A DNA stretch of 53,847 bases, the filler included, from Asterionella formosa (lineage: Eukaryota): NCBI GenBank assembly GCA_002256025.1. It is 4 parts of 4 records of this genome, joined end to end, with 100 filler letters (N's around TTAATTAATTAA, not from the genome) between each part and the next. Parts side by side here need not be neighbours in the genome. Positions count along the whole stretch, not along the records: positions 13,491 to 26,880 come from NKIB01006732.1; 3 more parts are not named here. The stretch is one strand, 5' to 3'. Each line of letters opens with the position of its first letter. Position 1 is the stretch's first letter. Of this stretch, positions 11,485-50,483 are shown piece after piece. Made by a program: the position numbers and the translations under genes. Under the pieces are notes generated by a model. That model was not told where the DNA came from. It saw nothing but the letters and a program-made list of their open reading frames with translations, and did not search any database.

Positions 11485-12360
11485 ACCTGGAAGGTCCGGT
11501 AGCATACATTTTATGCGCACCTTTTCAGTTCGATGCACTCCCAATGGATCATTGTCTCATGCCTGCCAGACAAGATAGTAGACTGGGTTTTCATTCCAAA
11601 CTCTCTTTGGTAACTTTCTTCAATGTTAAATTATCATTCATTAAACCCAATTCATGTTCTGATCATCGAAATTGTGTTCACTACCACTACTGATGATGGT
11701 ATTCAGCCACTGGATGACAGTTTGCTAGTAATGGAATTCACCAATCCAAAAAATCAGTAATTTCTAGTCGTATTCCGCAATTTCTAGTCATAGTAAGCAG
11801 TTTCTATTGCAGTCAGCATTTTCTAGTCATAGTCAGAAATGTTGCCAGCAAGTAATTGACAGCAGATTTCTAGTTGCACGTAGTCACCAGCCAGCTGGAA
11901 CAGTAATCATAAACAAAAAATCATTTTGAAAATGTCAATGGACCATTAATTGACATTACTTAAATAGAGAATCAAACAAAATTTCATTTGACCTACTGAT
12001 TACCATAGTGTAGCATGTTGCATCCTGTGAAAGTGTCAAATCTGTTTGTAACTTTGTTGTTTTGAATTGTGCATCATGTAAACTATGTGAAGCAATGCGC
12101 CATCGGCCATGGGCAACTTTTTCAATTTTCGTGGTTAATAATTAGTGCGATGACATTTATTTTTTTACGATTGTATTATCGATGTTGTGTTAGATATATT
12201 TGTCAGATAGCATAGCCTTGTTTTCATTTTCCATGGAGAAATTCATTATTTTCGAAATGGTCAAGGCGGAGATGGCATGACCGCACACAAGAACTACACT
12301 CTAGCAATTAATATAATACACAGCAAGAAATCGCACTATCTAAGCTAAATAATTATTGAC
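11485..12360 (+). mobile_element. Non-autonomous DNA transposon fragment (left end), homologous to 38805-39660; contains about 20-bp tandems at 11755-11890
   Basis: About 870 bp colinear with 38805-39660, from CCTGGAAGGTCCGGT to GCTAAATAATTATT. Shared blocks include TCATGTTCTGATCATCGAAAT and TCATTTTGAAAATGTCAATGG. Confidence 0.8.
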
Positions 12361-13390: not shown

Positions 13391-13490
13391 NNNNNNNNNN
13401 NNNNNNNNNNNNNNNNNNNNNNNNNNNNNNNNNNTTAATTAATTAANNNNNNNNNNNNNNNNNNNNNNNNNNNNNNNNNNNNNNNNNNNN
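13391..13490. other. Assembly gap with artificial TTAATTAATTAA spacer (also at 26881-26980 and 40341-40460; plain gap at 49743-50350)
   Basis: An identical 12-mer giving stops in all six frames is embedded in three N runs. Confidence 0.95.
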
Positions 13491-16400
13491 TTGTGTCTCA
13501 AGGCCCAGAACCACAGACATGACCAAAAGCGCACGGACAGTAGACCACTGGACCACAGGGGCATAGGTTTCAAAATATTCAATACCTTCCTTCTGGAGAT
13601 CCCTGTGTACACAAAACCGTGCTTTGCATTTGCGAACATGACCATCTGGAAAGAGCTTGCGCTTGAAGGCCCACGTGCCTGGTAGAACCTTATGGTTAAT
13701 AACCGATGAACGGGGCACAAGCGTCCAAGTATTCTTTTTGGTTAAAGCAGTGACTTCAGTGACCATAGCTTCACGAAAAAATTCGGAATCAGGCCCAGAC
13801 ATAGCCTCGTGATAGCGAGGATTATCGGGGTCCATTTTACGTGCCATGGCGGCGTAGATAAGAGGATCAGAACACTCAAGAAGTCCAGTGACAGGGTCGG
13901 TCATTACAGCACACATATAGGCCATTGCAGAATCAGACGCACTGACTTCAGAACATTCAACAAGACCAGCAAAGAATGCATTGGAAAGGTATTCTCCTGG
14001 TACAAAACGAGTGGGCCCGATTCCGCGTGTAGAACGAGTACTGCGGCGGGGAGAAGAGATGTTTGGAGGGAAAATTGCAATTTCAGGAGATGGAGGCTTT
14101 TCTGGTGAAAAAAGGAATGGATGCTGGTGGTGGCGGCGTAGCTGGAATTATGATGATGGGAACAGGAGGAGGAACAAAAGGAAGAGAAACAAATTCGGAC
14201 TCTCTCTGACTTGGTAGTTCATCGGGAGGTAGGTTCAAACGGGGAAAGATCTTAGATTCTTTTAGTAGGAGCCGGCGACGGGAAATGTCATCTGGCTCTA
14301 GCCACTCATCAGCAAGTGTGAAGTTTGTGTGTTTGTCAAATTTGGTCTCAAACCGGGACTCGTGAACGACAGTTTCCCAATTTCCCGGAGGGTCGTAGGA
14401 TATATTTAGCGAGGAAACGGTCGAGAATAGATCATCAAAGACGACGTGGTGAAATTGCGGAGAAATATGTTCTGTTGTCAGATTAAGTACCAAGGGAACA
14501 TTGGTACTATGAACATGGGAGATTCCAACAAAAATGGCGCGGCGGGAGCGAGGTTGCCAGCGTGGAAGCTTTTGTCCATTTTGTAATTTAGGGTCAAGGA
14601 CATAACAAGGACAACCCCAAACGTGTAAGTCCTTCAATCCATGACATGGAAGGATGGATTTCGTAAATAAGTCCATGGGAGATTGTCCAGTCTTGGAACT
14701 GGGCACATGGTTGTACAAATGTACTGCATAGTCCACCAACATAGGCCAGAGAGCAGGGTCAGCTGTAGAAGGCCAACGAATGGAAGCATTTAGTATCATG
14801 ACACGGGCCATGTTGGAAACAGTGCGAATGCTGCGTTCTGCAACACCATTTTGATGATAAGCTCCAAGACCACAAAAATTTTACAATTTGTCCTTTAGTT
14901 TGAATGACATCTACAAATTTACTGGCTCCAAAGCTGCCATTGTCAGTAGTATATTTATCAAACAAAACTCAAGAATTATAGCTCCAATTTTCAAAAGCCA
15001 TTTTATCTTGCAGAGTTTCTAGGACAGTGAATTCAACTAGATTCTGAATGAAAAGTAGGCCAGATAAGTGATCAGTAAATATGCACCCCCCCCCCCTTGT
15101 ACATATCGGTTGGTGAAGTCTTTCCTCTAGAAGTGTCAAGACGACCAGGGACCTTAGAAACAAAACGGTCAACAGAAACACCGGAGCCGGGATAAAGGTC
15201 ATTTGCTTTCACTCCCCCTTCTTTTACCGGTGTTGGGGCGGACGTGGATGCCTGAAAGGGTTTACGGTACGCCTTCCCGTATTCACAGGCAGCGCATTTT
15301 GGAGGAGTGCAGCGCGAAGCCGCTCGAATTTTCTGGGATGTACCAAATGATGGCTGACGTAGAAGAAATTGAATGGTGTCTGAGCAGAGGTGGCCAAGAC
15401 GGAAGTGCCAGTGAAGATATTCCTTTTGAGCCTCAGTAAGGTTTTGGTTTGTTTCGTCTGTGACACATAAGTTAAGGGAGGCTTCTTTGTCGCACACAGA
15501 TGAAGCACGAATGCCATGACTGGTAGGAAGAGAGTTTATGGGATCATAGGGAATAGTCAAGGTGGGTGATCCATCAATTACAAGGCGTGCGCAATCAGCG
15601 GTTACCTCGAAAATTCCCACATGGCCATTTTCTTTGTCGAAGATACGTTGAGGAGATAAAAGGCGTTGTTTGCATTGAGGCACATAATATGCAGTAAGAT
15701 GAAGTGTCAAGAGGCGACCAGAGTCAGAAAGGAAAGTCCACTGTACAGTGGCGATGCCAGCAACTGTGAGACCAGAAGCAATACCACCAAGATGAAGGTG
15801 AATGGAGGGTTGAAGAATGGGACCGACAAAATCGGTGGAATAGGCAGAAACAGGACGTGAGGCACCAGTGTCCCAAATGGCGGTGAAATGTTGTTCAAGG
15901 CCACCAAACAAGGAGATGGGGTCCATTTCAATGGGACGAAAGATGGATGAAGGCAAAGGTTTTGATGTGGGAAGGATGTTGATGGCGGGAGTGCAGATGG
16001 AGTCAAGAATGACAGGAAGAGGTGAAAAATTATGAAATGAATCTTGGAAGATGATGTAGGCAAAGAGTGATGGAGCCATGATGGGAGGAGTGGAACGTAG
16101 AATACTTTGTGTACCAGTGGGGAGAAATTTGCATAAGGAAGACAGAAAAGGAGTAGAATAAGGGATGGTAGAAAGGGAAAAAGTAATCCCAGGTAACCCA
16201 GGCGAAGGATCAGGAGGTTTAGGAGAAAAGAAAAAAAGAAAGAAGGGAGCAATATCCAACAAGAATGGAGAACAAGAAGGACCATGCCAGGTGACCATGT
16301 TATCATATGCGCCACCAAGAAACATTGCAGTAAACCACATGTTAATCATGATCCCACAAAAAATCAACCATACTGTCGGGTAGCCCAGTAATTTAATGTC

Positions 16401-16511
16401 GGTGATACGCCGACAACCAAAGATATCAAACATTGGGAAATACCAACAGAGAGGCATCGCTGTTGGTAAGTCTGTCAAAAGAAGCAAGGACCACCAAACT
16501 TGGGAGAACAA
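13491..16511 (-). mobile_element. Ty1/copia (CoDi-like) LTR retrotransposon pol, interrupted; PR-INT-RT order, truncated at the scaffold gap
   Basis: Protease IWDTGAS. Zinc motif WHFRLGH..CAACEYGK. Integrase PGSGVSVD, TDNGSF, QNGVAER and WGCPCYVLDPKLQNGQKLPRW. RT start EAMVTEVTAL..LPGTWAFKRK..KARFC..FETYAPVVQWSTVR. Several frameshifts and stops. Confidence 0.93.
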
Positions 16512-17338
16512 TCAGACGGATTCATAGGACTGGTAGCAAAAGGGGTAGTAGGGTTCAATGATAAGTCAATGGACAAAGTCAAAGGAACAAGAAAGTGCGA
16601 GTCAGTGAGATGAGGATTGGAAGGCAACATAGTAGTAATGGTGGTAAAGTTGGATAGGTCTGGCACAGTACCACCAGTCATGAGTGTTATGCCCAAGGGG
16701 CGATAATAAATCATTATTAACAATCAAAGACAAATTATTATCGACCGACCAAGTGACATGAGAGTCATCACAAGTAGAAATACATCCAAAACTTCTAAAT
16801 TGAAGAACAAGAGCATTGTTTTCATTCCCTCCCTACTATGTACCACCTCCTGCTGTGGTTGTCGTTGTTGCTGTTGCTGCTTCTGCAGCTGCACCTCCTC
16901 CTGTTGCTGCTACTGGTTGTCCTACTAATGATCCACCATTCCGTGATCAAGTTTGAGACTCCGCAAGTAAGAATTGAATGAGAAGCTCGTGATTTATATA
17001 ATTCATCAGAAGAATTCTCTGATGATGATACTGCCCTGGAAAAGTGTAAAACGTTAAGTAATAAGAAGAAAATTTTTGTAGAATAAACGGAGTAAAAATA
17101 AACACCGGTTGGGGGGAAAATATATGAAGGTTCCTGCATTTGAATCCCTAGCTCGAGGTAGGGTTTAAAAAATATTATTGAGTCAGAGTGGTCAAACCTA
17201 CACTTCTTACGAGAAAAACGTAAATGTATATCGCTAAATGGAGCTTTCACCAATATACACCCTTTCCATATGCTTAGATACAGTCTTCTGACAAATTAGG
17301 GGTATAGGTCAATGCTGTATATTGTAAGGATATGGATC

Positions 17339-17464
17339 CGGCAAGAAACTGCAGAAAGGAACTTCGGTTTTTTAAACTTTGTTGAAAATTGAGGATTTTA
17401 CCGGGCCAACTCGTTCATTTGGCCTAGTAAAAAAACCGAAGTTCCTTTATGCAGGTTCTCGCCG
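17339..17464. repeat. Imperfect inverted repeat of about 36 bp (about 53 bp spacer) inside the transposon end
   Basis: CGGCAAGAAACTGCAGAAAGGAACTTCGGTTTTTT versus AAAAAACCGAAGTTCCTTTATGCAGGTTCTCGCCG. Confidence 0.85.
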
Positions 17465-17496
17465 AAAGTTATCTTCTGGGGCTATATGAAGATTAC

Positions 17497-20163
17497 CTAT
17501 GTACTTAACTCTTCTTCAAAACCTTCCAACGTTGAGCTATTGTCGTTCAAAAATTCGAAAATATCGGCCTTTTCAACGGTCACCGAAATGTCGGAATCAG
17601 AATCACTAATCGCCAAAACGTCATCATCGGAATAGGAGTCTCGTGATTCGATTTTTCGTCCTACAATCGCCTGTACAAAAAATTCAATTGTAAGTGCACG
17701 CTTCACTATAAATATTTTGATTGGTCAAGATAAAATACTTACTGACAATTGATTGGTGGCCTGGTTTGCGCGGTCTTGCAAACCCAAGCTGGCCACACTG
17801 GATGCACATGTAACATTTTCTAGGGTGTTGGCCGGTACAATATCTACAGTAGGTAGCTGATCATCATTGATCATACGCATACCAGTATGATCAGGCACTT
17901 TGCCTACTGGTACATTGAATGGACAGAGTGTGCTGCTATTCCTTTGATGATCATTTCGGCCACAATGATTGCAGACATTTGTTCCTTTCCTTCTTGTTTC
18001 CTGATGTTCCCTTCTGAGTGCAACACCAGAGCCATAAGTCTTACCTGATTTGTTATCTTGCCTTTCCTGTTTGACTGTTTCGAATCGTGCTGCATGTATT
18101 TTTTCGCTTTGTTTCCTCTATTGTTTGAATTGTGCTTTATAGGCTCCATTGTCACTTCGTCCCTTTTCTTTTTGTCTCCAGAAGGATTCTCGCAGTGCTG
18201 ACATCTGCATTCCACATTGCTTGTATACATTCCTTGTGTATTGTGTTGCTCCTTGTGTGTGTTTCCCAGAAACCGAAGCCACTCGATATTGAAGGCCTCC
18301 AGATCCCGCAAACACCTGGTTTTTTGGACATCGTCGCGACACTGCATTGTTCATTGCCTCATTAATCTGCGTGTCAATGGGATGATGCAATTAAATTAGC
18401 TTTTCGCCTTCGACTTTTGTTGCAACATGCAGCATTAACCATTCGTATAAATCTTTTTCCTTTTCCTTGTCATGATATTTTCCGTTACTAACCAATTTTC
18501 CTGCTTTTACAGGGCACCATGTCTCAGAGCAGTAATCGTGGCAGCCAAATTAATGGTTGATTGGTGCCTTGGAGAAAATACTGAATTCGGCCAGAGAGAG
18601 GTTCCGGTTTTTTTAAATCCAAGCGCCATAGTAAACTTTCAACCGGAGACAATCTGCTTTTGAGGGACACTCAAGGGAGACCGGGCCATTGGGCGGATTT
18701 CATAAAAGCTGGGCGGAGAAGGACCTGTACTCTGTGGGATGGGTCAGACAGAAATGCAGGTTCAGGTACAGTCAGTGGAAAACATCCTTTGTCCGATTTT
18801 TTCAATCCTTCAATGTTCTGGGCCATTGGAAGGATGGCTTTAGTTTCAATAACTCCTTCTTATAGGACCACTTAGAAACAACTCGACTAGTAGAATTATC
18901 ATCACAGATGATTGTAGAGTAGATAACATTGCTTTTCATTACTGCATCAATCATCATTTCCACACAAGCATCTGGTTCCATTGCTAACTACCAGTTACAT
19001 GATTCTTGGGACAAACATGTTCCTTGATTGGCTCCTTGTACCGTACATATAGCCCTGTCGCACACATTACAGACCTTAGATTTCACTCTGTAGTCTAGTA
19101 TCTTTTTCGCTAGTCTAATGGCTTTTTCGTGTAGCCACCAATTGAAAAAAAGCATGTCCACTTAGAATTGTACTTATTCCCACTGGTCCGCTGCTGCCAG
19201 CCCATATCGTAACTAACAGTGAGTCGAGGCATACTCAAAAAAGACAAGCGATCCTTACCAGTCAGACTGTTCAACCACTGAAAATCACGTCCTTTGTCAG
19301 CCCAGTCTCCTCGTTCATGCACATTGAGTTTCAGATATATTTCATACTGACACGCCTCTTTTGTTGCAAGAGCGGTTGCAGTAAGTTCAGCGTTTCCCAC
19401 CAGTTCCTCTACCGCACCAAAGTTACCTTGCGTAGACCAAAATCCAAAGGTAAGTGGAAGATTCATTGCGGAGCAGATGATATAGTATGCATCTGCTGGT
19501 CCCATTCTGGCTTCGTGACAACCCAAAATAAACTGTTTGTTGATAGAAAAGTAATAAACTGTTTGTTGATAGAAAAGTGTTCTGCTTCTATTGCGTTATT
19601 TCTTATCTCATCATTTCTGTCTCCATTGCTGTTGCTTCTTGCAGGTTCGAGATTAGAAATCAGTTTCTGACAGGTCAAACAAGAGACAGTGAATTCGCTT
19701 GCCAGTCCAAGCCGTAATTTTTGGAAGATACAACAATCAACGGTTGTCTCATTGTTGAAATCGGAAAGTCAAACACATCCTGCTCCAGGAATGCTTCACA
19801 TTACTGTTCAATGGACAGCTTTTGTTTTCTATTTGATGTAAAGTAAGTTACAAAGTCACGAAGTGATTGTTTGCAATATTCTTTTACAAATTTATTAACA
19901 CAACTTTTGCAATACAAATCTTCCTGCAGAAATTTCGACAATGTATTATAGTCGATTATATGATTCATGTTCAGTTGAGAATAGTCTGTTTTAATTGGTG
20001 ACGATGTGATTGCTAGTTCAATTCGTGAAGAGGTTGCTGTAGGGGGACAAAAAGGCATCTGAGAGGTCCACCAATTTTGATTTTCATTGGACGCTATATT
20101 TCGTCCTCCTTGACCACCAACACCAATTTCGGAAATGAGATGGCTACCACTGGAACATGGCAT
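17497..20163 (-). pseudogene. DDE transposase pseudogene (Kolobok / Pfam Mutator-like transposase type)
   Basis: Ordered motifs across frames: LYCKSC; GLASEFTVSCLTC; INKQFI..GCHEARMG; TVSYDMGWQQRTSGNKYNS (D1); HVCPKNH..AMEPDA; IICDDNSTSR (D2); LSDPSHRVQ; FGCHDYC; DTQINEAMNNAVSRRCPKN (E); C-terminal CNHCGRNDHQRNSSTLC. Probable phase-0 intron 17671-17742 leads to an acidic last exon. There are in-frame stops and a 26-bp duplication at 19527-19578. Confidence 0.85.
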
Positions 20164-20315
20164 GATTTTGTCTTATAATAGTTGGTGTTGCTTTTTTTTA
20201 TGGCTGGTTGATTTGTTTGATTGTGTAAAAATAGAAATATATTTGTCATTCATGTCACCTCACTTCTAGAAGGTTTTGAAACATCGTACGTAGGTGGATT
20301 GAAGTTCTTGATTTA

Positions 20316-20825
20316 CTAATGAAATAAATGAAAATCGTAAAAACAATAATCACTAATAGATTTAGAACATTTAGAACGTTTGGAAGTTGGTTTTAAACCA
20401 GTGTACACTTTGTTTGGGTCCTTGTTCTTCAAAAGAGATCGAACCCCCTTCAAACAACAGTCAGGAAGTTGCATCCAAACACCTTTTCCCAATGGATCAC
20501 TGAAAACTCTGATTAGAAACTTGTACAGAAGATTGCAGGCTCTTGATGCTGTAATGTCTTCATCCTTCAACCTGGTAAGAATGGATTCACCTTCCAGAAA
20601 CTTCTCCACCAACTCTTCGACTTCATCCCATCGGCACTGACATTCAGGGCAGCAAAAATCGCAGCATTTGCAGAAGATGCGATCCTTATATCCCTCCACA
20701 TACAACTCTACAATCAACTGCTGGTCTTGGCAGGGAGGACAACTATCATGACTGTAGATAAATTTGTTATTACCGTTGTCATTATCATTTTGATGTGTTA
20801 TTTCGCTCATGGTTGATTGTTGCAT
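20316..20825 (-). CDS. KolX-like Cys-rich protein (P2X7 intracellular ballast domain-like), transposon accessory ORF
   Basis: Intact 169 aa. Cys cluster CPPC..FCKCCDFCCPECQC, followed by LYKFLIRVFSDPLGKGVWMQLPDCCLKGVRSLL..KVYTGLK. This matches the KolX/P2X7 C-terminal pattern YR.F.....LGKG.R...P.C....IR..FP....Y.GFK. Lies inside the TIRs. Confidence 0.72.
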   Translation of the reverse strand: MQQSTMSEITHQNDNDNGNNKFIYSHDSCPPCQDQQLIVELYVEGYKDRIFCKCCDFCCPECQCRWDEVEELVEKFLEGESILTRLKDEDITASRACNLLYKFLIRVFSDPLGKGVWMQLPDCCLKGVRSLLKNKDPNKVYTGLKPTSKRSKCSKSISDYCFYDFHLFH

Positions 20826-22068
20826 TTTTTTGTTTCTTACCGGTAGTCATCAACAATATTTGCCATGCTGCCAGCTCGTCTGACACATATATGTTGATTG
20901 TATGATAGGGTATATAAACATTGAGCAATGGGGAGAATGTTTATGTATATATTTATTGAATTCGAAAAGGAATCTATGTTTGTATGCGCAAATTTCCAGT
21001 GATTCAAATGTTTCAAATGGAATTACGTCATTCAAAATTAACTCAAAAAATTCTTAGTTCCAGGGAATTTCGGCAACCCTTAGCAATATATAAATTTTTG
21101 CCTAGGGGTTCCAATGCAGGAACGTTAATGTACAAATAGAAAAATATGCACTGTAAGCCACCGCTATGCAACAATCTTAGTGACTTTGGAAAAATTATAT
21201 CTACATGGCTCAATACACTGAATTGAAACTGATTACTTAACACTATAGCAGAGAGCATCTTCAAACATACACTTTGTACTTTCATCAAGTTTTGATTGTT
21301 GTACTGTATTACATAGATATTTTTAGTCGGAAGATAGAGTAAGATAGCGTGGGCTTACCGGTACAGTTTTTAACTGGCACTCACTGTAAGGATCTAACAG
21401 ATGTTTGGACAAAAGAAACAGATGGTGAGACAAAAAGAATTAGGAAATGTTGACGAATGGGTCACAGCCAGTTGAAGCAAGAAAAGGAAGACGTGTGATA
21501 TTTAGCATGCAGTATTCAGGAACAAAAACAAGACCAGCGTCAACAAATTTACGACTAAGATTGTTTATGGCATGAAAAGGCTCTTCTTTTTTTAATTCTC
21601 CCTATTACAAATTTTTTCGATCGCCCTGTCCCTGTTTCACACTGGATCTGTTGCTTGATTAGCACAGAGGTGTTGCAGTACATAGGAACCGTGGTTTCAA
21701 CATCACACTCACACATCTGTCGAATTCAATTTATTTTTCTGCTTATCATCATCTCTTTGAATTTACAATTATTGCGTATACATATTTCGTATTGATTCAT
21801 TCATTCGCTTTCTTGCGATCGCATCTTTCTGTTAACTTCGCTCTCAATACAGGCCTCTCCTTTTATTGGGATTCTAATAGTACATCATATTATTGTGATA
21901 AGCAAGCGCAAGCAAATCATCCTATCGTCGTCAAAGTGGGCATTTGTTGACTTGACTTTTTCAAATTATCCTTTCTTCCTTTCTTTGCATCATTATTAAA
22001 CTGGGTGGCGGGTGTCAATGACACTTGCTTTTGGTGTGAGTGTGTGTGTCCAATTTTCAACGTGAAGG

Positions 22069-23295
22069 ATGTCAAATTCATTGTGTCTTCGGAAAGAATT
22101 TGCCGAACATGAGGCGCCACAGTCATTCCGCCAACGTAGCATCCAGTTTAGTCGAAAACGATTCAGCTTTAGCGTCGTCGGTGAAGGTCCGAATAGAAAG
22201 ATTCTGGGATACGAACTATCACAAACGAACCTGATGAGCTCACTTTCTGCCATGAAGAATACTTGTGGATGGCTATGCACGCATTGTAAATACGAAAACG
22301 TGGACTCAACGAACACTACTTGTTCTGTATGTGAAAACATTCACGAGGAATCGCTCAAAATTGAAAATGATGCACTATTACTTGATTCGATTGATAGTAG
22401 TGATAGTAACGCACACGGTTCGGGATTTACATCTACGGGTTTCGACAATGAATTCAGCGTCGATAGGCGTCCTCGGCAAGGTTTTGTTCGTAGTAACGAT
22501 GAAAGTATGATGTTGGGCAGTTTATTGATGGGTGACAGACGAGGAAGTTCCAGTAAAACTATTCCATCGGAATGGAAACTTGATAACATTCCCTGGACTT
22601 GTACAACATGTACGTTTATCAATGCTGACATTGGCATGTTGAGTTGTGAGGTATGTGATATGGAATACGCAAGGAACCAAGAAATTGAGGTGGCTGACCG
22701 CAGAGGCAGCTTTGCAAGGGGACAGCGAAAGTCCTTGTGTGCGGCCATGGATAGTCCATTTGTGGGCGACATGGAACACCAGATTGCACTGTTTCGGGAG
22801 TTTGAAGAAAAGGCGCTAAAGAAGGCACGGATGGAGGAGATCATTACTCACCAGAAACAATTTTTAAATGACATTGCTCCGCATCCTCATGGTTCCGAGA
22901 TTTCTCAAAATGACCATTGGCAAGGAGAAGTAGACTTTGAAGAGCTTGAATTGACCAAGATAACCCTTCAAGAGTCCAGGGAGAGACTTCGATTTTTGGA
23001 GTCTATCCATTTTTCAGAAAAGGAAGACCAAGACAAGATGGCAGCGTTACTAGAGGAAAGAAAGAAAGCGATTGAGCATTCGGAGGGCAAACCAATGGAT
23101 GAATACACCGGTCGAGCGACTCGCCCGGGTGCATGCTCTGTCTCTGTAAATGCCCTGGAATGGGTGGCACAAAACCGACTCTTACTTGATTGGAAGGCCC
23201 AATGGGAGGAGCGGAATGACGAGATAAAAGCCCTCGTGGAGCAAGAACGACTAATTGTTGACAAGTGGAAGAAGGAATTTGACATTTCTTTGTAG
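22069..23295 (+). CDS. Protein with two RanBP2-type zinc fingers and a C-terminal coiled coil
   Basis: WLCTHCKYEN..CSVC and WTCTTCTFIN..CEVC. Glu/Lys-rich helical C-terminus. 408-aa ORF; start codon uncertain. Confidence 0.85.
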   Translation: MSNSLCLRKEFAEHEAPQSFRQRSIQFSRKRFSFSVVGEGPNRKILGYELSQTNLMSSLSAMKNTCGWLCTHCKYENVDSTNTTCSVCENIHEESLKIENDALLLDSIDSSDSNAHGSGFTSTGFDNEFSVDRRPRQGFVRSNDESMMLGSLLMGDRRGSSSKTIPSEWKLDNIPWTCTTCTFINADIGMLSCEVCDMEYARNQEIEVADRRGSFARGQRKSLCAAMDSPFVGDMEHQIALFREFEEKALKKARMEEIITHQKQFLNDIAPHPHGSEISQNDHWQGEVDFEELELTKITLQESRERLRFLESIHFSEKEDQDKMAALLEERKKAIEHSEGKPMDEYTGRATRPGACSVSVNALEWVAQNRLLLDWKAQWEERNDEIKALVEQERLIVDKWKKEFDISL

Positions 23296-23404: not shown

Positions 23405-24520
23405 TTATTTTACATACACATCCCATCGATTCACTGACCCTTTAATTTCGTGGGAGGGTTTTCGTATGGAGGAGTTTGTAGTCCCACCTAACGGCAGTGC
23501 TTGGATTGGACGCTTGACGACCACTCGACATGCAGCAGCTTCGATGGCGACTTCAAGGAGATGCATTTCTCGTATGCTAACATCGGTTTCGTCAATTTCC
23601 TGTGAGTTAAGGAGACCATGCAGAATTTGCATGTTTTTCTTGACGGCGGAAGATTTTGTTCTTGGAGCGAACATTGGATCAAGGTACATACAGTCAGGGG
23701 GAGGAATATCCAAAGGTGAATTTTTCACAGCCTCAGCTGCCTCGCCAACTTGCAGTGACAAACGATTTAACAGATCTGAGGCTGTATCTTGTCTACTATC
23801 ATCACTTTGTGAAATAAGTTTCAATCTATCCAAAGCATCTTGCAGCAAAGCTGCGACAATGGGATCACGTTCAATCATGTGCACATGCGATGCACCATTT
23901 TGCGCTAGTATCAACGAATCCTGTCCAAACCCTGCAGTCAAATCGTATACCACGGCTCCGTTCCTATTGCTTGATCTAATCTTTCCTGGCGCAACTGCCT
24001 TTACCAACAAATCAGAGCCCGATTTTCCTTTGGTCCTCCTGTCGAGCTTGCTACCCTCAGGAGGGCAAAAGTCGACAAAGAATGGTGTCGCGAGGGGCGC
24101 ATTGCGCCTGATTCTATTCTTCTTGTCACTTGAGTCCCCTCCGAGCGATTGAACACCGATAGCAGTGCCCTCAGTGGTACCTGCAGTGTACCGCACGACT
24201 ACTAGGGCATGGTGGAAGCGATCGACATCCGCACTGGCTACCTCGTGCACGTAGGGTATCGAAAGCCTTCCAGCTAAAGTCCTTGCAGTAGCTATGAGAG
24301 CGTCGTCGTCGGTCAAGACGCAGATACGTTGCTTCTGTGAATCTTCACATAGCTTGCTTTCCTTATGAGACATCAGTTTCGACGTTGTTTGGCAATACTG
24401 GCCTGGCCTGGCCCTGGTTTGGCGCCGAGCCCCGGAAGTATCCAGGGCCAACGATGATACTCTATAGGAAGCGAGAAGTGGAAATACGACGAGTGATGCT
24501 GAGATCCAACATGTTCTCAT
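23405..24520 (-). CDS. rsmJ: RsmJ/YhiQ-like SAM-dependent SSU rRNA methyltransferase, probably plastid-targeted
   Basis: DLTAGFGQDS, MIERDPIVAALLQDAL, YLDPMF, SAVKKNM, RVVVKRP and RWDVY parallel bacterial RsmJ motifs. Hydrophobic N-terminus ending in VSS-LAL, then a basic transit-like stretch. Confidence 0.9.
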   Translation of the reverse strand: MRTCWISASLVVFPLLASYRVSSLALDTSGARRQTRARPGQYCQTTSKLMSHKESKLCEDSQKQRICVLTDDDALIATARTLAGRLSIPYVHEVASADVDRFHHALVVVRYTAGTTEGTAIGVQSLGGDSSDKKNRIRRNAPLATPFFVDFCPPEGSKLDRRTKGKSGSDLLVKAVAPGKIRSSNRNGAVVYDLTAGFGQDSLILAQNGASHVHMIERDPIVAALLQDALDRLKLISQSDDSRQDTASDLLNRLSLQVGEAAEAVKNSPLDIPPPDCMYLDPMFAPRTKSSAVKKNMQILHGLLNSQEIDETDVSIREMHLLEVAIEAAACRVVVKRPIQALPLGGTTNSSIRKPSHEIKGSVNRWDVYVK

Positions 24521-26593: not shown

Positions 26594-27089
26594 GTTCGGA
26601 TGTGTCAAAGGTGCACTCCAAGTACCTGGTACCGGGTTCTGAGGAGAAGCATACCTACCTGGCACGACGTGCGAGTTTACAGGACGAAACGCTCAAAAAT
26701 TTGGCCCCCTCCCGGTCATTTTGAGAACTCATGTCGGATCAATAAGCACCACATAACACCTTTTTGTGAGCAATAAGCATTTTCTTTTGTGCCTGATGGA
26801 AGATAGATTTGTCTTCTTAATCCGTTAGAGTGACATTTGAATTTTTCGACGAAGGATTCATGTCGACGACAGTCAACGGANNNNNNNNNNNNNNNNNNNN
26901 NNNNNNNNNNNNNNNNNNNNNNNNTTAATTAATTAANNNNNNNNNNNNNNNNNNNNNNNNNNNNNNNNNNNNNNNNNNNNCTTATGCTGAACGCATGATT
27001 TAGTACGAATTTTTCGGCCGGCCAGCAGCACGCAACCCGACACATACGTCATCACCTCTCTTGACATCGACTTCCCCGATGCATGCCAT

Positions 27090-38804: not shown

Positions 38805-40340
38805 TCCAGGAAGGTCCGGTTGTGCACGTTTTATGCGCACTTTTTCAGTCTCAATGCACTCACGACGATGCCTGCCGGACGAGATTGATTGGCTTTTCAT
38901 TTCAAACTCTCTTAGTAAGTAACTTTCTTCAATGTAAGATTACAATTAATTAAATCCAAGTCATGTTCTGATCATCGAAATCGTGTTCACTACTCCTACT
39001 GGTAATGCTATTCAGCAACTGGATGATGGTTTGCTAATGGAATTTACCAATCAGTAACTTCTAAAATTTCAAGTCAGCTAGCAGATTCTAGTCATAGTTA
39101 GCTAATTCTAGTCGTTGTCAGCAAATTCTTGTCACTGTCAGCAAATTCCAATCATTGTCAGCAAGTTCTAGTCGCTGTCATCAGATATCTAGTCGTATCA
39201 GCAATCATAAACAAAAGAGTCATTTTGAAAATGTCAATGGAATATTAATAGATGAGATTACTTGGAATCAAACAAAATTTCGTTCTACTACCTACAGATT
39301 ACTGTAGTGAAGCGTACTGCATCCTGTGAAAGTCTCAAGTCCATTTGTAACTTCGTCGTTTTGAAGTGTGCATCATCTAAACTGCGTGAATCAATGCGCC
39401 ATTGGCGACTTCAATTTTTGTTGTCAATTTTAGTGTTATTACAATTATTTTTTACAATTGTATTATCTATGTTGTGTTAGATATATTTACCAGATAGCAT
39501 AGCGTCGTTTTCATTTTCAATGGAGAAATTCGTTATTTTCGACATGGTCAAGGCGGAGACAGCATGATGCAGGATTCTCCAGCTGTGCACAAGCAAGAGC
39601 TGCACTCTAGCGTTTATATACAGAAAGAAATCGCAACATCTAGGCTAAATAATTATTTACTAGCTTCCATAAGGGCTACCTTGGGTACCAGGTACCCTGA
39701 AAATATGTACCAGTATCCTATGTAGTAGCCATAGTAGCATATATGTGATATGTGATATATGTATTATAGTAATGCAAATAGCCTAGTATAGTGGTTTCCT
39801 GGTAGGTTGTGCATTGCATCTGGTGTGATGATGACTGTGACCATGTATATAGATATGACGTTACATTTGCTTATATCTAGTACTATTGGCAAGGCAATCA
39901 GGGGCAGTGGTTGTGTTTGTTCATGTATATACTTCATAGGCAAAAGGGTCATTCAGAAAATCTATTCTTATTTGCAAGTTTCAGTCGTTGTCAGCAAGTT
40001 CTGGTCATTGTCAGCAAATTCTAGTCGTTGTCATCAATCCTACTAGTCATTGTCAGCAAATTCTAGTCACTGTCAGCAGGTTCTAAATGTAGAAAGGAGG
40101 GATTCCTATTTGGATTCTGAAGCTAGAAGAGTGGTTTGCTGAACCTGGCATCAGTCAGCAAATCCGAGTCATGTTCAGAGATTGACTCTGCAAATCGTTA
40201 TTGGTCAAGAAGAGTTAATGTTTTCCTAAATTACTCAAGGAATATTGTTTTCATCAAAAGGTGGCCTATCTCATCCGGCAGACATGAGATGATCCCCTCT
40301 TGGGAGTGTGTCGAAACTGAAAAGGTGCGCATAGAATGTG
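38805..40340. mobile_element. Non-autonomous TIR element (about 1.5 kb) with internal 20-bp tandem arrays
   Basis: Left end TCCAGGAAGGTCCGGTTGTGCACGTTTTATGCGCAC. Right end read on the minus strand CCCTGGAAGGTCCAGGTGAGCACATTCTATGCGCACC. GTCAGCAAATTCTAGTC(A/G)TT tandems at 39060-39205 and 39980-40085. No ORF. Confidence 0.72.
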
Positions 40341-41537
40341 CTCACCTGGACCTTCCAGGGNNNNNNNNNNNNNNNNNNNNNNNNNNNNNNNNNNNNNNNN
40401 NNNNTTAATTAATTAANNNNNNNNNNNNNNNNNNNNNNNNNNNNNNNNNNNNNNNNNNNNGGAAAACAGCGGAAACGATTGGAGTCGTCATGGTGGAAGA
40501 AGGCCTGAGAGGCCTGAGTGACAGGGACAGCAAACGGGCAAGCGGTGCTGGACACTTGATTGTTGAGACCAGTGCTGGTTTGCACTGTCGACAAGAGCCG
40601 CAACTTCGCAGGTGCGGACAAGAGAGAAAGAACAGATATTGTAGTTCTGTTGAGGGGAACCTTATCGTGAATAAAGGTGAACTACAATATTATGACTATT
40701 CTATTGCTGTTCCAAGTACATCGTTGTTAGCACTCACGCATGTACCTAATCTGGTGGCTGCGCCGGTATGGTTCGTACAGCGCATGTAGCTATGGAGCAT
40801 CATATGCAGATATTAACAACCACATCACTTATATGATTATTCAACCAGAATCATGACATGCACGAAATATTTCTGCATCATGAGGCAGCAGATGAAATGA
40901 TTCTGTGAACACTTCCGGCAAGCCGACAACATCAAGGCCAGAACTGCCTGAGCCTTTAGCATTTAGCTTGATAATCGCTCCACAACAAGCATGCAAGTTG
41001 CAGCTTCGACTTTTGAAATAGATCTCAGGACAAGGATATTGCCATCGCAAATGTCATTGGCATCGCTCATGTTGTTGTTGATTGTTGTTTCATGATGGTG
41101 ACCGGTAAGAATACAATTATAGTAAATGCATTAATAAATAGCTAGAATACAATAATATGCTGTTATTTTTTCTGTAGACATAAAATATTTGGGGGTGTTG
41201 TGCCAGATGTACGAAGGGGGGCACAGGTATCTGGGGGGATACGACACCAGGTTTTACGGTACGGTACCTGGTACAGAAACCCTGGTACGGTTCGATTACG
41301 GAATGCGCGGCCGTGAAAGTGGCGATGATGGGAAGGAAGAAAACGACGGGTATGCTCGTTTTGACGATTGGAACCGTTAAATAGCTGGCAGTTAGGTTGA
41401 TGTAAATGTAGCAACAGTAGAAAATATACATGTGTATTCGGCTTCCCGCAAATATTTGATTGACCGGTCGATGTAAAACAGCATCATTTGGCGATATGTA
41501 TGTGCATGTATGGAATGTACCGGTATACATGTATATT

Positions 41538-48727: not shown

Positions 48728-49742
48728 TCACACTTGATACATTTCTCGCTCTTGTCCATCTGCTGGGTCAGGTAGCATATTTCCTGGCGATTTCCAATAA
48801 GTATAATTTCCACCATAATGCAACACGAACCGTAATCCAAAGTAGTGATTGTCTCCAACTTGGGCGGTTGGGACGTACGAGCAAAGTTTAGGAACACGCA
48901 AACATGTAGATTGTGCGACTGTTTGGTCTTCGCCAATAAACATATTGCGTTCTAAGAATCCTTTTATCGTTGCAATGTATTCTTGGTGCCATTGCTTCCA
49001 TGTATCTCGATAGGCTGCCATTTGTGAACCAGAATGGTAAAAGTTTTCCTTTTGCGAGTACTTGTTATTCCACCAAATGTACCGTGGTACTTTTGTTTCA
49101 TGGTGTGCCATTTGGAGGGTGGTCGTCTCTGGAACGACTTCATAGTGCACCATCATTGTTTTTCCGTTGTACTTGTCATTTCGAAAGCATCCAATGTCTG
49201 ACCAAATATAAACGTGTGATTGAAAGTAATCTTTCTTTATCGCATCTGTAACGAACCAAGATTTGGACAACCAAATCCAAAACAACTGGTACGATCTGTG
49301 AATTTGTCGTTCAGGATCTTGCTGCAATTGTCCTTCCCAAAATTGCGCACTGTATTCCTTTGCCAAGGGCAAGTCTGTCATGTCCATCCCAATCACCACT
49401 GTCCTGTCCCGTGCATGGGATCTATGTGTTTCCATATGTGCCACTAAATCATGAGATGTATAAATGACCATGCTGTCTTGGAGAGACAACATGTTGGCCA
49501 TCCATTTGTTGTAATGTTCCTTTGGGAATTTTGACGCGAGTGAAAAGTAAGCCGTCACGATGGTTGCGTTGCTTTGTGGTCGTACTAGCTGCTGTTGCTG
49601 TTGTGTTGTCATGCCAATCGGATCATTTCTATTCGACACGGTTTCGTTCAACGTGACCGATTTGTAATGGGTTGACACCATGGAACTCGTGCCAATGACA
49701 ACAAACAGAACGAAGGTCAAACCTAAAGCTTGGACATGTGTA
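48728..49742 (-). CDS. HtrL/YibB-like (glycosyltransferase-like) type II membrane protein, 5'-partial
   Basis: TIVTAYF, IWLSKSWFV..AIKKDYF..YIWSDIGCFR and FIGEDQ. TM segment LGLTFVLFVVIG. The frame stays open up to the gap at 49743. Confidence 0.8.
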
Positions 49743-50483
49743 NNNNNNNNNNNNNNNNNNNNNNNNNNNNNNNNNNNNNNNNNNNNNNNNNNNNNNNNNN
49801 NNNNNNNNNNNNNNNNNNNNNNNNNNNNNNNNNNNNNNNNNNNNNNNNNNNNNNNNNNNNNNNNNNNNNNNNNNNNNNNNNNNNNNNNNNNNNNNNNNNN
49901 NNNNNNNNNNNNNNNNNNNNNNNNNNNNNNNNNNNNNNNNNNNNNNNNNNNNNNNNNNNNNNNNNNNNNNNNNNNNNNNNNNNNNNNNNNNNNNNNNNNN
50001 NNNNNNNNNNNNNNNNNNNNNNNNNNNNNNNNNNNNNNNNNNNNNNNNNNNNNNNNNNNNNNNNNNNNNNNNNNNNNNNNNNNNNNNNNNNNNNNNNNNN
50101 NNNNNNNNNNNNNNNNNNNNNNNNNNNNNNNNNNNNNNNNNNNNNNNNNNNNNNNNNNNNNNNNNNNNNNNNNNNNNNNNNNNNNNNNNNNNNNNNNNNN
50201 NNNNNNNNNNNNNNNNNNNNNNNNNNNNNNNNNNNNNNNNNNNNNNNNNNNNNNNNNNNNNNNNNNNNNNNNNNNNNNNNNNNNNNNNNNNNNNNNNNNN
50301 NNNNNNNNNNNNNNNNNNNNNNNNNNNNNNNNNNNNNNNNNNNNNNNNNNTCATATGCATGAATACCTCTTATCTTTTAGAACTCCTTTTTACATAAAAC
50401 GTGATGCAGGCGGCTCTCAGTCCATTTTTAGTAAAGGGAAAATGGGCTGGCTATTATTGTTAACCAGAAACCGTCTTTAACAG

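Follow-up and report, generated by a model that had tools for sequence, protein, structure and literature searches.

The DNA analysed here, referred to as the window, comprises 53,847 nucleotides from the Asterionella formosa assembly GCA_002256025.1. It consists of four pieces, separated by N...TTAATTAATTAA...N spacers at approximately 13391-13490, 26881-26980 and 40361-40460. The second piece (NKIB01006732.1) contains a 3,996-bp element that spans positions 17129-21124, carries a 23-bp terminal inverted repeat (TIR) at both limits, and encloses the remains of a transposase gene and a second, cysteine-rich open reading frame (ORF2), both on the minus strand. We consider it very probable that this element is a dead, full-length copy of a high-copy cut-and-paste transposon of the Kolobok superfamily, apparently lying inside the repeated flank of a copia-type retroelement. 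What is said here about other copies of the family draws on contigs from metagenomes, on environmental protein collections and on public sequencing runs.

The left TIR (GGTTCCTGCATTTGAATCCCTAG, 17129-17151, plus strand) and the reverse complement of the right TIR (CGTTCCTGCATTGGAACCCCTAG, 21102-21124, minus strand) agree at 20 of 23 positions, with the outermost base among the mismatches. The left TIR is one base off the consensus of eight other copies and retains the GG at the end of the element; the right TIR is two bases off, and its outermost base is one of the two. The adjacent target-site copies read TGAA on the left (17125-17128), which is one change from TTAA, and TTAA on the right (21125-21128). 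The repeat and its unequal flanks had already been given in a preliminary description of this DNA, and were found at the same positions. A 22-nt core pattern from both ends has its sole matches in the 53.8-kb window at 17130-17151 (plus strand) and 21102-21123 (minus strand), and is matched in none of 100 dinucleotide-preserving shuffles. A chance inverted repeat is ruled out by these shuffles together with the TTAA ends of all eight other copies.

The transposase pseudogene occupies 17725-20163 on the minus strand. The preliminary description had proposed that ORF fragments in this region assemble into a DDE (Asp-Asp-Glu) transposase, and the protein motifs LTVSYDMGWQQR, IICDDNS and DTQINEAMN are indeed present on the minus strand, together with CxxC pairs near the N-terminus and a CxxCx4Hx8C knuckle at the C-terminus. 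Three window fragments match the Pfam family PF20700, 'Mutator-like transposase', with E-values of 5.5e-08, 5.3e-04 and 0.021. An intact relative of 791 amino acids (P0039, from a cluster of 159 members) is 86% identical to a 161-residue fragment from the window. In a tblastn comparison, its residues 1-790 align with the window in four collinear pieces, from 20163 to 17737, at 78-94% identity. The 90% cluster contains at least three distinct intact proteins of 791 amino acids. The Pfam check suggested in the preliminary description returned PF20700 as the sole model matched, with an E-value of 3.8e-43 for P0039; one other match of this protein at E <= 1 is at noise level.

The window transposase is interrupted by 5 in-frame stops, and its frame changes 7 times, near 19708, 19553, 19110, 19050, 18987, 18860 and 18690. 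A perfect 26-bp tandem duplication (19527-19578, 2.0 copies, 100% match) shifts the frame at about 19553, and a 20-bp tandem duplication (19091-19129) coincides with a frame change as well. According to the sequencing runs, several of the indels and stop-making bases are private to the window copy. The second catalytic motif reads DDN in the window copy and DDD in its relatives. The window copy is full-length but dead, in agreement with the aged, full-length copy that had been proposed.

Relatives of the transposase are numerous. An exhaustive HMMER search with P0039 yielded 3,052 representatives at E <= 0.001; their number was 1,131 at E <= 1e-10, and it fell to 185 at E <= 1e-30. From 150 listed hits, the 53 with a length of about 650 amino acids or more were scanned against Pfam, and PF20700 was the sole match in every one of them. 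When P0039 is aligned with 40 relatives that are 23-31% identical to it (41 sequences), the residues D308 and W311 (of S.DMGW), C347, C365, D455 and H458 (of DxxH), H517, H522, C525 and C530 are invariant, and conservation reaches 90% or more at C350, H363, D403-405, N581, E582 and N585. The putative catalytic positions D308, D403-405, D455-x2-H458 and E582 thus all belong to one of these two groups. The layout of the protein is a D, a CCHC finger, a second D, DxxH, a His/Cys finger, an E, and then the C-terminal zinc knuckle. As a lead only, PF20700 is carried by the Atlas clusters nearest to P0039, which come from Cnidaria, Porifera, Arthropoda, Parabasalia and Chordata, a range that may resemble the published one of Kolobok, and one of them has a THAP domain in 16% of its members. 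Viral contigs scanned with P0039 contained no relative.

Upstream of the transposase on the same strand lies ORF2, which is open from 20810 to 20316 (164 codons). The frame runs from stop to stop at 20316-20846, with the stop codon at 20316-20318 and an alternative ATG at 20825; gene calls in the family often begin at the methionine of MSEITH, which gives a protein of 152 amino acids. A single-sequence search retrieved 38 homologues and a profile search 69, all of them environmental. For the homologue P0001 as well as for the intact transposase P0039, the source given is a contig of 3,848 bases, which suggests that the two-gene arrangement exists in an intact copy too. The columns conserved in the ORF2 family comprise ten Cys positions, W61, R92, N93, Y96 and P116.

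The limits of the element are best judged from its other copies. An exact-pattern scan of metagenome contigs for the TIR identified eight loci (L001-L008), and in all of them the end has the form TTAA followed directly by GGTTCCTGCATTTGAACCCCTAG. The 35 bases beyond TTAA are different in every one of the eight. The inward sequence resembles the left end of the window copy in five loci and the right end in three. Since loci of both types begin with GG after the TTAA, the element has the form 5'-GG...CC-3'. BLAST places the identity of the metagenome copies to the window at 80-94%, with 94.0% over 635 columns for L001, 91.7% over 626 columns for L007, and 88.8-89.0% over 600 columns for L002, L004, L005 and L006. 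In seven of the eight copies, the BLAST homology limit coincides with window position 17127, 21128 or 21131. The Kolobok reading thus withstood the checks that the preliminary description had named, for TTAA next to GG and for homology continuing past 17129 and 21124, as TTAA abuts GG in all eight copies and homology stops at the TTAA in all of them except L003. Mutator-like elements (MULEs) make 8-10-bp duplications, and no variable duplications of this kind were found at the eight ends. What adjoins the ends is TTAA, from which a duplication of these four bases upon insertion would be expected.

The metagenome loci also provide a view of the structure of the family. In L003 and L008, a sequence like 17672-17834 is joined to the right end, and both are, by this structure, internally deleted derivatives. 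L004 is inserted in the subterminal region of another copy. Separately, positions 378-622 of L003 hold two right ends of the family tail to tail, in one of which the TIR is lost and CATGT forms the link to the other's TTAA. The join could be a scar of excision or rearrangement, or an assembly chimera.

Within the left part of the element, a 134-nt subterminal palindrome (17335-17468) has 35-nt arms (17339-17373 and 17430-17464) that are 91% complementary and contain a TIR-like GTTCCT..TGCAG motif. The predicted DNA fold has an energy of -40.2 kcal/mol (z -8.9), which none of 200 shuffles equalled. The palindrome is also detected as a self-match in all five left-end metagenome copies, and sequencing-run depth peaks there. 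With the TIR-like motif in its arms, it may be a candidate binding site for the transposase. The hairpins adjoining the TIRs, with z of -1.3 and -1.7, are no better than shuffles, and an Rfam search across the whole window gave no match.

The Pfam name of the transposase family raises the possibility that the element belongs to the MuDR/MULE superfamily, and that TTAA is a target preference and not a hallmark of Kolobok. PF20700, the sole Pfam match, carries the Mutator label, and MuDR, P, hAT and Kolobok are related, in that they share the C/DxxH signature (PMC9587614). We regard this alternative as very improbable, because the ends in all eight copies adjoin TTAA and begin with GG, and the His and Cys positions between DxxH and E are invariant. 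P0039 also matched no transposase model beyond PF20700 at E <= 1, and the models without a match presumably include the classical MULE models of Pfam. The distinction is sharpened by published descriptions. Kolobok, described by Kapitonov and Jurka and summarized in PMC9587614, duplicates TTAA, and its termini are 5'-RR at one end and YY-3' at the other; nearly all Kolobok transposases contain, between C/DxxH and E, a zinc finger that is missing from MuDR, P and hAT. The same source attributes a CCHC finger behind the first D to KolobokP, E, D and 5 and to some solitary families. The element has RR...YY termini, with GG at all eight ends of either type, and its finger between DxxH and E comprises H517, H522, C525 and C530. 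The observed layout of the transposase equals that of Kolobok in PMC9587614. A piggyBac-type element, from the other TTAA-specific superfamily, is the second alternative. TTAA next to both ends is a piggyBac trait too, but GG...CC termini separate Kolobok from piggyBac according to PMC9587614, and P0039 matches PF20700 and no piggyBac-type model in Pfam. We attach next to no probability to this alternative. A Kolobok-type element, as the preliminary description had called it, is thus the reading favoured by the ends, by a transposase that matches PF20700 alone, and by the finger between DxxH and E. Judged by the same features, the Pfam label of PF20700 is misleading for this element.

The Kolobok family to which the element would belong appears to be abundant. 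Among public sequencing runs, those that match best are labelled as algae or freshwater metagenomes. Four runs were aligned to 16000-22000 at 85% likeness, and 48,857 contig pieces of run X1 were placed on this region. The summed depth within the element reaches hundreds of thousands, compared with about 850-970 for single contigs of the unique right flank, a difference that is not to be read as a copy number; relative to the unique flank, depth within the element is tens of times higher. The subterminal parts have the greatest depth, in line with short derivatives that have the same ends. Loose contig ends gather immediately before 17127, with 94 pieces in run X1, 7 in X7 and 6 in X19. Their flank consensus has low agreement, but its final letters are TT in all three runs, which together with the AA at 17127-17128 yields TTAA. 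Intact 791-residue transposases and deletion derivatives in environmental assemblies indicate that the family, which is very abundant, is probably still active. In the poly-A metatranscriptome X19, contigs that align with the transposase region (up to about 97% identity) show 6 differences in 203 and in 224 bases, and contigs on the unique right flank show 1 difference in 229 bases. This places the organism, or a close relative of it, in the sample, and members of the family may be transcribed, with the caveat that DNA can occur in such libraries.

Several observations weigh against the reading of the element as a TTAA-specific Kolobok transposon with the limits given above. The left site of the window copy itself is TGAA and not TTAA. 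The metagenome loci are single ends, and none was seen with TTAA at both ends. In L003, one alignment reaches 21147, which is 19 bases beyond the TTAA, at 78.7% identity. The run contigs that join both flanks contained no clean empty site with a single TTAA. High copy number is also seen for the flanks (about 16930-17128 and 21125-21266), which taken alone could mean that the element is longer. The assignment to Kolobok draws on the TTAA ends and on comparison of the motif layout with published descriptions; Pfam calls the family 'Mutator-like', and our literature search found no paper that ties PF20700 to Kolobok by name. Finally, THAP was detected neither in P0039 (Pfam, E <= 1) nor in any of the 53 long relatives (E <= 0.001). 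DDE, THAP and an H2CH finger are the usual Kolobok motifs according to PMC6004289, H2CH being the name given in Xenopus elements to the finger between C/DxxH and E; THAP is described in the literature as usual and not as defining. Conserved CxxC pairs stand where THAP would be expected.

The high-copy flanks can be explained by nesting. At 13503-16511, outside the element and on the minus strand, Pfam identifies Ty1/copia-type ORFs (gag-pre-integrase, integrase SH3-like and RVT_2), and the 5' side of this retroelement faces the Kolobok insertion. Several contigs connect 17104-17125 to 21129-21149 at 85% likeness. In view of these contigs, of the high-copy flanks and of the adjacent copia-type ORFs, the flanks would represent the repeated terminal region of the retroelement, within which the Kolobok copy is nested. 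The joining contigs were also considered as empty sites and rejected as such, as they have other letters at the junction (e.g. ATT, TGGT) and represent paralogous copies of the flank repeat. The copia-type retroelement is itself multi-copy in the runs.

It is less clear what ORF2 encodes. The preliminary description had placed a KolX gene ahead of the transposase on the same strand. The second Cys-rich ORF, the order and the shared (minus) strand stand, but the KolX identity is plausible only from the position of ORF2 in the element and from a partial motif. According to PMC9587614, KolX from the Kol0 lineage resembles the C-terminal ballast domain of P2X7, with two zinc ions and seven conserved Cys. 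The Cys clusters of the ballast domain are PxWCxCx2C, LCCRx3GxC and (L/I/V)PSC(C/S)x3IRx2(F/Y)Px5Y(S/T)G, and R546, Y550 and F/Y581-P582 are conserved landmarks (PMC7016195). According to PMC9587614 and PMC7016195, both Kol0/KolX and the ballast domain are reported from animals only.

ORF2 contains R-N-x-x-Y, followed after 18 residues by LPDCC-x3-V(R)-x11-YTG. The spacings from R to Y and from Y to LP are those implied by the published numbering of the ballast domain (R-x3-Y, 19 positions before LP). The segment LPDCCLKGVRSLLKNKDPNKVYTG fits a relaxed form of the cluster 3 motif from that source, a form that occurs in none of 200,000 shuffles of ORF2 and in none of 197 unrelated stored proteins. 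Compared with cluster 3 as printed, ORF2 has two extra residues in the gap that precedes YTG, and it has no match at the S and F/Y-P positions. Of 44 members of the ORF2 family, 21 have the CCx6C spacing, which is like that of cluster 2, and cluster 1 is not matched by ORF2.

Two explanations are close in probability. ORF2 may be a true but very divergent KolX or ballast-domain protein, in a non-animal Kolobok lineage of the CCHC-finger type, and we rate the chances of this as even to slightly better than even. Alternatively, and with slightly lower probability, ORF2 is unrelated to KolX, being a lineage-specific Cys-rich accessory of an algal Kolobok family or possibly a 5' exon of the transposase. 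The resemblance to the ballast motif would then be convergent or over-read, a view to which we give the same, somewhat less than even, weight. The KolX explanation is favoured by the position of ORF2 in the element and by the motif. R-x3-Y-x18-LP-x-CC-x3-V(R)..Y-T-G fits the landmarks R546, Y550, cluster 3 and F/Y581-P582 (PMC7016195), its positions are among the best-conserved columns of the family, shuffling did not reproduce it, and a second gene is what Kol0 elements carry (PMC9587614). It is weakened by the failed profile tests and by the CCHC-type transposase, as the finger is assigned in PMC9587614 to KolobokP, E, D and 5, and not to the KolX-bearing Kol0.

The tests that speak against KolX and in favour of an unrelated protein are numerous. 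Pfam assigned no domain to any of the 69 homologues, and in none of 21 members did a P2X7 C-terminal-type model match at E <= 10, the Pfam matches of ORF2 being noise. Sequence and profile searches of the PDB with ORF2 found no P2X7 chain at E <= 10, the ESM Atlas contained no usable match, and two AlphaFold2 runs yielded models of low confidence, with a mean predicted local distance difference test score (pLDDT) of 43.6 and 44.1. With these low-confidence models, Foldseek found no match in the PDB at E <= 0.001. The strict cluster 3 motif, as published, has no match in ORF2; the relaxed form is found in just 7 of 44 family members, mainly due to variation of the R after V. Clusters 1 and 2 are matched in Cys spacing at most. 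The weak PDB matches that ORF2 did produce (complement receptor repeats, a NEMO zinc finger and a ROCK coiled coil) were dismissed as unrelated.

Among known systems, the element has most in common with the CCHC-finger Kolobok lineages (KolobokP, E, D, 5 and some solitary families), as they are presented in PMC9587614. Shared features are the TTAA ends, the 5'-GG..CC-3' termini, short TIRs, and a DDE core that includes DxxH, a CCHC finger following the first D, and a further zinc finger located between DxxH and E. The element differs from the superfamily at large in that no THAP was detected. In contrast to KolobokP, E, D and H, for which the paper describes accessory nucleases or helicases, it has none of these and carries a small Cys-rich ORF instead. 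With the Kol0 lineage (Kolobok-1_XT type, transposase plus KolX), it shares the two-gene organization with a small Cys-rich second gene and, in part, the zinc-cysteine motif of the ballast domain and the R..Y landmarks. Unlike the Kol0 KolX, which is reported from animals only, ORF2 is recognized by no profile or fold search, and its first Cys clusters are contiguous and not spaced as in the published ballast motif. MuDR/MULE transposases have a related DDE fold with C/DxxH and lend their name to the matching Pfam model, but lack a finger between the second D and E in the published account, whereas the element has an invariant finger there and TTAA in all eight copies. The Kolobok superfamily itself is already known, and according to PMC9587614, has been reported from a diatom in Repbase. 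Provided that the present host is a diatom, the Repbase Kolobok families of Fragilariopsis cylindrus would have both the superfamily and a microalgal host in common with the element; the readable supplements of the paper have no diatom or KolX entry.

Taken together, the data are compatible with the following mechanism. Active members of the family would encode a DDE transposase of 791 amino acids, the N-terminal CxxC pairs of which may bind the 23-bp TIRs and probably also the TIR-like motifs of the subterminal palindrome. The RNase-H-like core would then provide the chemistry to excise the element, insert it at TTAA and duplicate those four bases. The predicted catalytic residues of this core are the D in SYDMGW, the D in DDDS and the E in TQINE, with a CCHC finger after the first D, then DxxH, and a His/Cys finger before the E. 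The upstream ORF2, with 152-164 amino acids, would travel with the transposase on the same strand, and most likely encodes a zinc-binding accessory protein, possibly related to KolX and the P2X7 ballast domain. The window copy is envisaged to have landed in the repeated flank of the copia-type retroelement and then to have decayed, with 5 stops and 7 frame changes in the transposase, mutations in both TIRs, and a change of the left TTAA to TGAA.

Other features of the window lie outside the element. The right flank is unique at 21608-22000 and 22066-23295 (plus strand), and contigs from the poly-A metatranscriptome cover it almost without difference (1 in 229 bases); it seems that a neighbouring host gene without a Pfam family is expressed there. 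Further along, an ORF at 23405-24520 (minus strand) has a SAM_MT (PF04445) putative methyltransferase domain, with an E-value of 1.5e-39. A direct repeat of about 0.9 kb, 84-91% identical, is shared by the first and third pieces (11486-12360 and 38806-39660), and part of it recurs in inverted orientation at 40315-40359. A long array with an 8-base period, for which 78 overlapping copies are reported, occupies 49715-50400 and has open frames on both strands. Features are not to be read across the joins of the window at the N and TTAATTAATTAA runs.

For the annotation of this genome, the analysis turns about 4 kb of apparent ORF fragments into what is very probably a single dead transposon nested in a retroelement. 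For the transposon family, it provides a protist or algal example that ties PF20700, which is called 'Mutator-like', to TTAA and GG..CC ends of the Kolobok type, and it could help to correct automatic labels. The part of wider interest is the possible non-animal KolX, and this interest would be moderate and for specialists, if the identity is confirmed. KolX is the protein from which the P2X7 ballast domain is proposed to derive, and ORF2 is a candidate for a relative of it outside animals. If it is a true relative, the partnership of KolX and Kolobok would extend outside the Metazoa and outside the Kol0 lineage, and the finding would be relevant to the question of whether the domain that vertebrate P2X7 later captured predates animals, as an accessory of a transposon.

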